Origin: Oceanispirochaeta sp.
GTDB taxonomy: Bacteria > Spirochaetota > Spirochaetia > DSM-2461
Direction of reading: 5' to 3'
DNA length: 64,000 nucleotides
NCBI GenBank assembly: GCA_963666275.2
Contig: CAXXOA010000002.1
Span: 224,001 to 288,000 of the forward strand
Positions within the stretch are counted from its first letter, which is position 1, and every line of letters begins with the position of its first letter. A program made the translations under genes and the position numbers. Below are positions 28,746-32,083 of the stretch, piece by piece. Below the pieces are notes generated by a model, which was not told where the DNA came from, ran no database searches, and saw nothing but the letters and a program-made list of their open reading frames with translations.

Positions 28746-29258
28746 ATGGAAAAAACCTATATTTCTTACAATCAGATACACAATACAATAATCGATCTGT
28801 CCAGACAGATCAAAGACTCGGGCTTTGACCCGGACCTGATGGTAGCCATCGGAACAGGAGGGTTCATCCCTGCCAGAATGGCAAAGACCTTTCTGAATAT
28901 TCCGATCCTGACAGTGGGCATAGCCTATTATGACCTGGATGATAATCCTACAGACAAACCCGCCATAACCCAGTGGCTGGATCAGCCGGAAAAACAGATC
29001 AAAGGGAAAAAAGTTCTACTCGTTGATGAAGTGGATGATACCCGTGCAACCATCGGATTCTGTCTGGATGAGCTTAAAAAGCATGAACCTGCAGAGATCG
29101 CACTTCTTGTTATCCATAACAAGGAAAAAGAGAAAAAACATGAAATTCCCTCCTGGATAAACCATTACTTTATCGGAGAGAATTTTCAGGATCAGTGGAT
29201 CTGCTATCCCTGGGATGCGGAAGACACTGAATTTCAGGAAAAAATGTCTAATTCATAA
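28746..29258 (+). CDS. Purine phosphoribosyltransferase family protein
   Basis: AIGTGGFIPAR, VLLVDEVDDTRAT, WICYPW. Confidence 0.88.
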   Translation: MEKTYISYNQIHNTIIDLSRQIKDSGFDPDLMVAIGTGGFIPARMAKTFLNIPILTVGIAYYDLDDNPTDKPAITQWLDQPEKQIKGKKVLLVDEVDDTRATIGFCLDELKKHEPAEIALLVIHNKEKEKKHEIPSWINHYFIGENFQDQWICYPWDAEDTEFQEKMSNS

Positions 29259-29329: not shown

Positions 29330-29635
29330 TCAGATGTCGATTTTGCCATAGGACACAGAACGCTTTGTTCCGTTTGTAACCACCTGCACTTTATCAACAG
29401 TAATGGCCACGACTTCTCCGGTCAGGACTTCCTTTTTAAACTTATATTTGATCTTGTCATGGATCTTGATTTTATCCCGGATTTTCCTGGCATTTTCTTC
29501 AGACTCTTCCTTCGCCATAGCCCGTTCATCCGCTTTAATGGCATAATCCAGTTCTGTTTTCAGTACCAGCTTATCTTCGTAGGAAAGCGGTTCATAAATA
29601 TTCTTATAATAGTCTGTTTTTTTTGCTCTTGCCAT
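29330..29635 (-). CDS. Hypothetical basic protein with SH3/KOW-like C terminus
   Basis: ATG 29635 with AGGAG SD; LTGEVVAITVDKVQV. Confidence 0.7.
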   Translation of the reverse strand: MARAKKTDYYKNIYEPLSYEDKLVLKTELDYAIKADERAMAKEESEENARKIRDKIKIHDKIKYKFKKEVLTGEVVAITVDKVQVVTNGTKRSVSYGKIDI

Positions 29636-29784
29636 TTTAATAACTCCTGTTACCTGCAATGAAAAAAATCTAATTTTTTTAAATATAAGGGAGTTTTAAA
29701 AAATAGAAAAGAAAAAAAACTTTTTGCATAAAAACCGGAGAGTTCCGGAACGAAAAAAATGGCCTTCAATCTTCAAATGAAGAC

Positions 29785-29844: not shown

Positions 29845-31179
29845 TCAGTTTCCGTTCTTATGGATTTCATCCAGAATCATCTCTTCTGCGGACTCTTCGG
29901 GAATATCATCCAGGGACCGGGGTAGGACAAGGTTCAGAATGATACCGACAAGAGCTGCCAGAGCAACACCGCCGAGTTCGAAGTCCAGTCCGCTTCCCAT
30001 GGGAAATTTGACAAGTCCTCCGCCAATACCCAGAACAAGGATAACTGAAGACACTGTGAGATGCCGTTTTTCACCGTAGTTTACACCGCTCTCCACAACA
30101 GTCCGGATACCGGCACTGGCAATGATACCGAAGAGCATCATGCTCACCCCGCCCATAACAGGAGTGGGAATGGTCTGAATCAGGGCCCCGAATTTCTGAA
30201 TAAAAGAGAGAATGACCGCAATCACAGCCGCTCCCCCCACAACCCAGACGCTGTAGATCTTTGTAATAGCCATGACACCGATATTCTCACCATAAGTGGT
30301 ATTGGGAGGTCCACCGAAAAGAGCCGCCAGAGATGTGGCGATACCATCTCCCGCCAGGGTTCTGTGGAGACCCGGATCCTTATAGAAATCCCTTCCGGCA
30401 ACCTTGCTCAGTACCAGAGTATCTCCCAGGTGTTCTGCAATGGTGGCAAACGAGACAATCAGAAATGTGACAATAGGAACCCAGTGGAATTTTGGCATAA
30501 CCGGTTTGGTAAAACCAAGCCAGGAAGCTTCTTTCACTACGGTAAAATCAATCAGGTGATAGGCGGGAAAAATGGATCCCATGATCAGGGTAAAAAAGTA
30601 CCCGCCCAATATGCCGATCAGAATGGGAATCACATTGAAAAAACCCTTAAGAACTATAGAGGAAACAACAGCGACAGCCAGGGTGAACAGAGCAATACTG
30701 AAGTATGCCAGGCTGTAGGTTCCTGTTCCTCCGGTCATGGCCATATCCATGGCTGTGGGTGCCAGTTTAAGACCGATAACAATGATGATGGAACCGATCA
30801 CGACGGGGGGAAGAATCCTGTCCATCCATTTGATTCCGAAGCGGCTGATAATCAGAGCGATTATACAGTAGAAAACACCCACCATAAAGGCACCGCCCAT
30901 TGCATAGGCCACACCGAAATCCGGCGAAGAGCTGATGGCAATCAGTGGGGCGATAAAGGCAAAGGACGAACCGAGATAGGCCGGTACTTTTCCCTTTGTA
31001 ATGGCAATATACAAAAGGGTTCCGGTTCCGGAAGTGAAAAGAGCCACCGTGGGGCTCAGGCCAATCAGAATCGGCACAAGAATAGTAGCACTGAACATGG
31101 CAAAAACATGCTGAATACTCAGGGGTATCCACTGTTTGAGTTCAGGTTTGACATGAACATCAATAAATTTATCAGACAT
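29845..31179 (-). CDS. uraA: Uracil permease (NAT/NCS2 family)
   Basis: QHVFAMF, YLGSSFAF, EHLGD, PPNTTYGENIG, LFG-type TM motif. Confidence 0.95.
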   Translation of the reverse strand: MSDKFIDVHVKPELKQWIPLSIQHVFAMFSATILVPILIGLSPTVALFTSGTGTLLYIAITKGKVPAYLGSSFAFIAPLIAISSSPDFGVAYAMGGAFMVGVFYCIIALIISRFGIKWMDRILPPVVIGSIIIVIGLKLAPTAMDMAMTGGTGTYSLAYFSIALFTLAVAVVSSIVLKGFFNVIPILIGILGGYFFTLIMGSIFPAYHLIDFTVVKEASWLGFTKPVMPKFHWVPIVTFLIVSFATIAEHLGDTLVLSKVAGRDFYKDPGLHRTLAGDGIATSLAALFGGPPNTTYGENIGVMAITKIYSVWVVGGAAVIAVILSFIQKFGALIQTIPTPVMGGVSMMLFGIIASAGIRTVVESGVNYGEKRHLTVSSVILVLGIGGGLVKFPMGSGLDFELGGVALAALVGIILNLVLPRSLDDIPEESAEEMILDEIHKNGN

Positions 31180-31202
31180 ACAACCTCCAATTTTATTTGG
31201 GC

Positions 31203-31233
31203 AAAAAAAAGCCCTGAATCAGAAATTCAGGGC
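31203..31233 (-). terminator. Attenuator-type intrinsic terminator in the uraA 5' leader
   Basis: Minus strand GCCCTGAAT-TTCTG-ATTCAGGGC-T8, ending 23 nt before the uraA ATG; the upstream gene is divergent. Confidence 0.85.
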
Positions 31234-31302
31234 CGGAATACCAAAGTTATAAATACAGAAGGGGGATAAAAAAATCTGCCGGTTTTTTCTCCATTTCTTC
31301 AT
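31219..31302 (-). CDS. Putative uraA leader peptide (27 aa, MKKWRKNRQIFLSPFCIYNFGIPALNF)
   Basis: ATG 31302 to TGA 31221-31219 inside the terminator; candidate promoter TTGACC-N18-(TG)TAAAAA 7 nt upstream. Confidence 0.55.
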   Translation of the reverse strand: MKKWRKNRQIFLSPFCIYNFGIPALNF

Positions 31303-31456
31303 AGTTCTTTTTTTATCATTTAACAAGCCCTACGGTCAAGGACATGTCTGACCAATTAATTAGACCGGCAGGCCACTTGCTCCCAGAAGGGCCTATCGGT
31401 ATGATTATCCCAGAGGATGGAAACAGGAAAGCCATCCTAACTTTCCGGAGGAATTT

Positions 31457-32083
31457 ATGAATTTAGTATGTCTGGACCTTGAAGGGGTCCTTGTACCCGA
31501 AATATGGATCAACTTTGCCTTGAAAACTGGAATCGAAGAACTGAAACTGACAACCCGGGATATCCCCGATTATGATGTTCTTATGAATAAGCGGCTGGGA
31601 ATCCTGGATGAACATGGTTTAAAACTGAGTGATATACAGGAAGTTATCAGTACAATGGATCCTCTCCCCGGAGGATACGATTTCCTTCAGCAGCTGAGAG
31701 AAAGAACCCAGGTGATTATCCTCTCCGATACATTCGATCAGTTTGCCTCTCCCCTTATGAAAAAACTGGACTGGCCCACCCTGTTCTGCAACACCCTGCT
31801 GATCGGGCCGGATGACAGGATAACCGGATACAGGCTGAGACAGAAAGACGGTAAAAAGAAAGCGATCGACGCCTTCCATTCCGCCGGATTCAGAGTCATG
31901 GCAGCAGGAGATTCCTATAACGATCTGACAATGATACAGCATGCGGACAAAGGGATGTTTTTCAGAGCTCCCGAGTCTATTTCACAGGAATACCCCGAGT
32001 ATCCCCTTGTCACTGAATACAGCGACCTTCTGGCCGGAGTGGATGAGTTTATTTCTCAAGGTATGGCAGCAGAGCCTGTTTAA
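31457..32083 (+). CDS. thrH: Phosphoserine phosphatase / homoserine phosphotransferase
   Basis: CLDLEGVLVPEIW, TTRDIPDYDVLM, ILSDTF, AAGDSYND. Confidence 0.95.
   Translation: MNLVCLDLEGVLVPEIWINFALKTGIEELKLTTRDIPDYDVLMNKRLGILDEHGLKLSDIQEVISTMDPLPGGYDFLQQLRERTQVIILSDTFDQFASPLMKKLDWPTLFCNTLLIGPDDRITGYRLRQKDGKKKAIDAFHSAGFRVMAAGDSYNDLTMIQHADKGMFFRAPESISQEYPEYPLVTEYSDLLAGVDEFISQGMAAEPV

Follow-up and report, generated by a model that had tools for sequence, protein, structure and literature searches.

A candidate ribosome-coupled, PyrR-independent attenuator upstream of the uracil permease gene uraA, conserved across a genus of spirochaetes

The window, by which we mean the whole stretch of 64,000 nucleotides analysed here, belongs to a genome of 5.27 Mb that is 97% complete (G000) and carries on its minus strand the gene uraA, preceded by a compact leader and, in the opposite orientation, by thrH (Table 1). 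The uraA product scores 456 bits against the uracil permease model NF007995, below the cut-off of 477, and matches the E. coli UraA structures (E ~1e-106), the alignment taking in the QH, AEH and TTYGEN motifs; this upholds the uracil transporter that an earlier note on this DNA had named as the target. That note was also right that thrH is divergent; the gene has its own predicted promoter, and in two relatives (L003 and L004) it is absent upstream of uraA, with other sequence in its place. Downstream of uraA lie a 109-aa ORF without an NCBIfam match (29330-29659, minus strand) and, convergent on uraA, a type I phosphoribosyltransferase gene (28746-29258, plus strand) whose product is weakly xanthine/hypoxanthine phosphoribosyltransferase-like, under all cut-offs; as a PyrR it was rejected (23.6 bits vs 218). 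Elsewhere G000 carries pyrB-pyrI and pyrF-pyrE fusions, and a UPRTase-like protein of 356 aa (L036; C1:965795-966865) with an N-terminal extension of ~90 residues that scores below cut-off.

Table 1. Features of the uraA leader and its surroundings, with GTCWGAC sites elsewhere. Positions are those of the window unless a G000 contig (C1, C2) is named.
Feature	Position	Strand	Remark
uraA, NCS2 uracil permease, 444 aa	29845..31179	-	ATG at 31179, 23 nt after the U8
Shine-Dalgarno GGAGG of uraA	31184..31188	-	found in 11/11 genus leaders
Intrinsic terminator	31203..31233	-	9-bp stem 31233-31225/31219-31211, 5-nt loop, U8 at 31210-31203
Predicted near-leaderless ORF, 27 codons, without Shine-Dalgarno	31219..31302	-	ATG at 31302
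TTTATAA, candidate UTP-sensitive pause tract (putative function)	31247..31253	-	identical in 11/11
Irregular 5' hairpin (A-rich arm, U/C-rich arm), U7 included	31258..31300	-	weak in the window, stronger in relatives
U7 run	31274-31268	-	read from the sequence
Predicted extended -10, TG + TAAAAA	31310..31318	-	TG, T and A columns invariant; spacer 17-18
-35 hexamer TTGACC	31334..31339	-	unchanged in 11/11 genus leaders
Palindromic GGTCAGACA box, putative operator	31345..31353	-	5-7 bp upstream of the -35
Predicted separate thrH promoter TTGCTC-17-TATGAT	31377..31405	+	by eye; similar hexamers likewise placed in several relatives
thrH, divergent neighbour	31457..32083	+	NF010109, 308 bits; outside the switch
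GTCWGAC sites in G000	C1:317330, C1:1906056, C1:2154160, C2:861305, C2:946853		
GTCWGAC loci	L316, L319, L321, L331, L335		

The hairpin with its U8, their distance from the uraA ATG and the 27-codon ORF stopping inside the hairpin were all read in the window as previously described. The TGA of this ORF lies across the hairpin loop and the 3' arm's first base, and no second promoter was seen in the window's 23 nt between hairpin and uraA. Three DNA contig sets from a single sample, possibly the source of the window, gave the sequence without differences. Taken from one genome alone the leader is weak: a simple scan counted 3 terminator-like sites where shuffles gave 1.6 +/- 1.6, the whole-leader fold had z = -1.47, and an open frame of such length occurred in ~28% of shuffles. 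It exceeds chance because it is conserved across the genus.

Within this genus, apparently Oceanispirochaeta, 11 genomes were searched and all 11 contain uraA (82-100% identity). Their leaders share GTC-GAC, TTGACC, TGnTA, ATG, TTTATAA and the terminator in the same order (11/11), the -10 varying to TAGATT or TAGAGT in five relatives, and from ATG to terminator they are 35-80% identical. The leader ATG, defined as the first ATG at least 5 nt past the -10 (L007 has another at gap 0), stands 7-10 nt past the -10 in every leader and 67-71 nt from the stem in ten of them, with 83 nt in the remaining one. TTTATAA precedes the terminator by 12-14 nt, or by 21 in one leader, and the terminator consensus has eight pairs, three of which show compensatory changes. 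A pattern combining motif and terminator had a single match, at uraA, in each of 10 of the 11 genomes, the eleventh escaping it by a longer spacer, and no match in the 27 other genomes of the family. A metagenome scan for TTTATAA plus terminator gave at least 119 loci, with no uraA neighbour among the matches listed; TTTATAA before a terminator is thus generic in AT-rich DNA, and no new members were gained. From these sequence comparisons we consider the conserved cis element upstream of uraA to be real.

The leader ORF ranges from 20 to 56 codons across the genus. Its stop falls in or past the hairpin in 10 of the 11 leaders and 9 nt short of it in the other, and three of the ORFs continue out of frame into uraA. 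Because the encoded peptides are unrelated and two frames are used (7/11 and 4/11), TTTATAA must be conserved at the nucleotide level. A single leader ORF has a chance of about 0.15-0.37 of being open; for all 11 frames the probability was about 0.0002-0.0065 in a neutral simulation on the leader tree (substitutions only, ATG and TTTATAA held fixed), and 0.003-0.04 with branches halved or 0.02-0.16 with branches quartered, the kin not being independent. An out-of-frame control, which took the upstream ATG for L007, found 0/11 and 3/11 frames open, one frame being trivially closed by the TGA in ATGA. The distance from ATG to TTTATAA is 48, 49, 52 or 55 nt, never the phase that would put its TAA in frame; since that TAA would sit 15-16 nt upstream of the stem, near the limit of ribosome reach in E. 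coli, this avoidance of one phase is weak evidence.

The case that the earlier note had set against its own proposal, a terminator kept with the ORF lost, is not what the genus displays: ATG position, open frame and terminator are kept together in 11/11. In the alignment of relatives that it called for, ORF position and terminator proved conserved, whereas peptide, frame and U7 run did not. These results bear on a simpler reading, in which the terminator is constitutive, making a small RNA or merely damping uraA, and the ORF is incidental. The chance of each ORF taken alone would suit it, as would the frequency of TTTATAA before terminators in AT-rich DNA, and we regard it as highly improbable given that ATG position and open frame are conserved together, that the layout recurs in another family (see below) and that, in the window, no further promoter is visible between hairpin and uraA.

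A terminator in E. coli is repressed when a stop codon lies a few bases upstream of it, and works fully when the stop is >27 nt away (available text of PMC4824070); the distance from stop to terminator has served as a proxy for transcription-translation coupling (available text of PMC7858274). In G000, 20 of 195 gene-end terminators (10%) lie within 12 nt of the stop, with a median of 25 nt. Because ordinary terminators thus avoid stops, this genomic proxy points to coupling of transcription and translation in G000 rather than runaway transcription. The leader ORF reaches its hairpin, an arrangement that ordinary G000 genes avoid, and the combination of promoter, near-leaderless ATG and ORF extending to the hairpin was met at just one of 156 gene-upstream terminator-like sites, namely uraA. 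Neither at these upstream sites nor at the 11 G000 sites with TTTATAA plus hairpin did another gene carry a similar attenuator, and the de novo genes pyrB and pyrFE are without one.

The suggestion in the earlier note that the leader ORF is possibly leaderless has gained ground, the start being a predicted one. Among 159 G000 genes preceded by a consensus promoter at no more than 45 nt (a set built from crude gene calls, its Shine-Dalgarno split arising partly by construction), the main peak comprises 52 with the ATG 6-9 nt past the -10, and G000 appears to use leaderless genes at the spacing of the leader ORF. About one-third of the consensus-promoter genes look leaderless, with tRNA synthetase-like and regulator-like products, judged by their N-termini, among them. 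At the pyrFE promoters, taken as a control, an ATG at gap 6-10 was seen by eye in 0/10 genus loci, one genome's fused gene not being among the ten. Leaderless transcripts are reported to be common in Leptospira (available text of PMC5243855). The window ORF lacks a Shine-Dalgarno, has a leaderless spacing common in its genome and has a constrained open frame; its transcription start is only predicted, because the -10 is without its final T in 6/11 leaders. We hold it highly likely that the terminator is under ribosome control.

No PyrR exceeded the NF003549 cut-off in the 38 family genomes (best 43 bits vs 138), of which 23 are at least 90% complete, the one model used being positive in 6/14 control genomes; PyrR was likewise not found in the six genomes of family f7. 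The check for pyrR proposed at the outset thus came out as the proposal would have it. Within the window no Rfam family reached its gathering score, and the PyrR site RF00515 was absent among 9 matches at E<=10 in 31100-31460, in agreement with the earlier reading of the leader as free of a PyrR-binding loop; elsewhere, the Rfam PyrR model was positive in the Bacillota loci L054 and L072. Folds of all 11 leaders gave no antiterminator pairing with the 5' arm of the terminator. A PyrR attenuator was accordingly rejected (no pyrR over cut-off, no RF00515 loop, no antiterminator), as were a riboswitch (no Rfam match, no consensus pairing upstream of the terminator) and an amino-acid attenuator of the trpL type (no conserved regulatory codons, no alternative antiterminator).

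Uridines are distributed unevenly along the leaders: the first 30 nt contain 2-9 of them and the 35 nt leading up to the stem 12-18, the latter compared with 10.1 +/- 3.2 for G000 terminators (n=343); the 16 of the window are reached by 23 of those 343. This passage from U-poor to U-rich, present in 11/11 and unusual among G000 terminators, bears out one half of what had been claimed, a U-poor start followed by a U tract. The other half, the U7 as the pause, fell away: the run is private to this genome, the longest U run being 3-5 in the other ten and only 3 in 6/11 leaders. Nor is a U-poor start a pyrL-like feature, since the first 30 nt of E. coli pyrL include 14 U. Instead of the U7, the U-rich tract surrounding the invariant TTTATAA is the candidate pause. 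The 5' hairpin has a negative fold z in 11/11 (-0.21 in the window, down to -4.11), and in 5/11 no more than 2% of shuffles are as stable; in the alignment of 11 there is no consensus pairing for it or anywhere upstream of the terminator, and this lack of a shared register argues against an aptamer or a fixed protein site. It may act kinetically, or its stability may simply follow from the A-rich/U-rich polarity of the leaders, a property lost on shuffling.

A generic U pause would not require TTTATAA to be as strictly invariant as it is. An RNA-binding protein, a nuclease or a NusG paralogue might recognise UUUAUAA and control termination, with the ORF secondary, and the motif's identity at the nucleotide level across two frames, its fixed distance from the stem and the presence of a second NusG-like gene would fit such a protein. 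We nevertheless think it very unlikely: no antiterminator pairing was found in the 11 folds and no PyrR, the fixed ATG and open frame would go unexplained, and the main NusG has K-I aligned where that of B. subtilis has N81-T82. The second NusG-like gene (L340; C1:2319261-2319758) is divergent and scores 59 bits, below cut-off; it possibly encodes a specialised antiterminator. Two other roles for the motif were rejected. For a B. subtilis-type NusG-dependent TTNTTT pause the hairpin/T-tract geometry looked promising by eye, but the residues of NusG do not match; for a -10 element, whether of an internal promoter or an antisense one, no -35 fits by eye and the last base varies.

Pyrimidines could also be sensed earlier, at initiation. 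The attenuator would then still be ribosome-coupled, with start-site switching or reiteration in response to UTP/CTP altering how many bases precede the AUG and hence how well the leaderless message is translated. E. coli is known to sense pyrimidines through start-site switching and stuttering, its pyrBI start AATTTG being a UTP sensor (available text of PMC6524683), and in 7/11 leaders (L004, L005, L006, L010, L012, L013, L015) the gap ahead of the ATG is rich in pyrimidines or includes AATTTG. In the window and three close relatives, however, the gap is purine-rich, so it cannot be the shared sensor, and TTTATAA and the U gradient are left unexplained; we find sensing at initiation quite improbable for this element.

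Upstream of the promoter, GTC-GAC adjoins the -35 of uraA and is invariant in the 11 leaders. In G000, GTCWGAC also precedes purL-purE, two BMP-type ABC operons (one beside adenine deaminase), agcS and an 8-oxoguanine deaminase/Mo-oxidoreductase operon, and among 30 loci inspected in relatives it stands before purL (G004, G005, G006) and BMP genes (G003, G010). It overlaps the pyrFE -35 in 2/10 genus loci (L289, L301). Its genome-wide counts are not above those of a reversed-pattern control, so that its recurrence before orthologues is what backs it as an operator. We treat the box, presumably of FadR/GntR-like shape, as the putative operator of a DNA-binding regulator, and its sites suggest an undescribed nucleobase regulon. 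A separate operator could instead carry the pyrimidine signal, ORF and terminator then giving a fixed or growth-rate-dependent read-through that gauges coupling. The place of GTCWGAC beside the -35 in 11/11, its recurrence before purine and nucleoside genes and the shortness of the U runs speak for such a division of labour; against it stand the U gradient, which ordinary G000 terminators seldom show, and the finding of the layout in G000 on the uracil transporter only, and we consider it unlikely.

The anatomy, its conservation and the constraint on the open frame, with neither PyrR nor an antiterminator found, lead us to favour, with moderate confidence, a pyrBI-type transcription attenuator, ribosome-coupled and PyrR-independent, on a leaderless message. 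The pyrBI-type logic put forward in the earlier note is supported by the ATG position, open frame and terminator in 11/11 and by the lack of PyrR over cut-off in 38 genomes. The start site, translation, pausing and UTP as the signal are parts of this reading that we infer, the last because of the target gene, the U gradient and the absence of PyrR. RNA polymerase would initiate at or a few bases from the AUG, pass ~30 U-poor bases and then enter the U-rich tract around UUUAUAA. At low UTP it would slow there, allowing a 70S ribosome to load on the 5' AUG, catch up and translate to or into the 5' arm of the terminator, so that the hairpin could not form and uraA would be transcribed. At high UTP the polymerase would run ahead, the terminator would fold and an RNA of ~100 nt would be released, with the AUG perhaps also concealed by the weak 5' hairpin. 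The leader peptide itself would be irrelevant. That UTP is sensed by pausing seems to us reasonably probable.

Among loci of the UraA clade more widely, 32 of 106 distinct upstream regions had a terminator-like call, and 24 chosen loci were inspected in detail. Family f7 has the same layout in unrelated sequence at 3/4 loci (L020, L253, L254): TTGAC-17-TAA, an ATG exactly 10 nt later and a near-leaderless ORF that ends 7 or 1 nt before the terminator or passes through it, without a clear U tract. In family f20, L021 and L275 (the latter by eye) have a Shine-Dalgarno-led ORF entering the terminator and L274 has none. A leader terminator with a short ORF ending at or in it was noticed at L021, L069/L275, L276, L047 and L059, some with a Shine-Dalgarno. 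Most Treponema- and Sphaerochaeta-type loci inspected have neither such a layout nor the AATTTT start described next; several of the Sphaerochaetaceae (L051, L052, L061, L098, L100-L116) carry a short inverted repeat GACT...AGTC near the predicted start, and in L051, L052 and L098 a tiny hairpin comes after it together with a long run of U. In the sister genus, 3/4 loci (L008, L011, L014) lack a terminator and have AATTTT at a predicted start ~42 nt before uraA; this start, behind a strong promoter, resembles the stuttering pyrBI start AATTTG (available text of PMC6524683) and is a candidate for UTP-dependent reiterative transcription. The pyrFE promoters of four of ten genus genomes (L039, L289, L299, L301) have (A/G)ATTT 6 nt past TATAAT and the remainder just TT or none, a weak hint of stuttering control.

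A wider reading, which we offer tentatively and think possible rather than probable, makes the loading of 70S ribosomes on a leaderless 5' AUG the timed step of a peptide-blind UTP sensor that evolved at least twice in spirochaetes, beside the AATTTT-start solution of the sister genus and the GTCWGAC nucleobase regulon. With an A-rich start, polymerase would get past the AUG whatever the UTP level; at low UTP it would be held in the U-rich half with UUUAUAA, and when it is fast the AUG would be hidden by the self-occluding 5' hairpin. If true, ribosomes loading on a leaderless message are quick enough to become coupled to polymerase within ~70 nt, and regulator-free pyrimidine control has been reinvented across phyla. 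The conserved Spirochaetota case offers a transporter target and a leaderless ORF in an element of ~100 nt, small enough for reporter or in vitro tests, with 11 natural variants marking the important positions.

Coupling as a means of sensing UTP is textbook knowledge for enterobacteria, where it has been shown for genes of biosynthesis. As in E. coli pyrBI/pyrL, a leader ORF here reaches an intrinsic terminator before a pyrimidine gene, the peptide is immaterial and no antiterminator is seen; the U content before the stem is also alike (13/35 in pyrBI vs 12-18 in the genus leaders). The E. coli pyrL, by contrast, has a 5' leader with a Shine-Dalgarno, begins U-rich and extends over 44 codons through the terminator, and pyrBI controls biosynthesis in a gammaproteobacterium, whereas the present target is a transporter in Spirochaetota behind an ORF predicted to be leaderless. 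That the element works like pyrBI is assumed, and its relation to pyrL is drawn as an analogy, homology not being claimed. The window (31180-31233) and pyrBI (L252) terminators both end GGGC, U8, GCCCA, 23 nt before the start codon, a likeness that is probably coincidence because the 23-nt spacing is not kept in relatives. In E. coli rph-pyrE, coupling is modulated by UTP and the upstream ORF ends just before the terminator; that ORF is a full gene, whereas here it is a dedicated mini-ORF. E. coli upp-uraA senses UTP without a regulator, by reiterative transcription. Such reiterative transcription, in upp-uraA and pyrBI, acts at initiation and uses no terminator, and resembles the sister-genus loci (L008, L011, L014), not the window element. 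PyrR-dependent attenuation in Bacillota shares the target class, a uracil permease, and the leader terminator, and by eye PyrR-type leaders precede the same UraA clade in L054, L055, L058 and L072.

In pyrBI, as here on the favoured reading, coupling blocks the hairpin (available text of PMC5021804 and PMC4824070): its formation is prevented by tight coupling across pyrL (available text of PMC5021804), and the terminator, which lies within the 135-bp leader gene, functions at normal UTP (available text of PMC4824070). A full-text literature search, outside which most subscription papers fall, turned up no attenuator with a leader ORF described for a uracil permease or for spirochaetes, and the leaderless spirochaete version looks new. 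The polycysteine sORF attenuators of mycobacteria (available text of bioRxiv 10.1101/834739) are, like the ORF here, leaderless short ORFs acting as cis regulators; they sense an amino acid through their codons and control the structure of a ribosome-binding site, whereas in the uraA leader the codons are unconserved and the target is a terminator.
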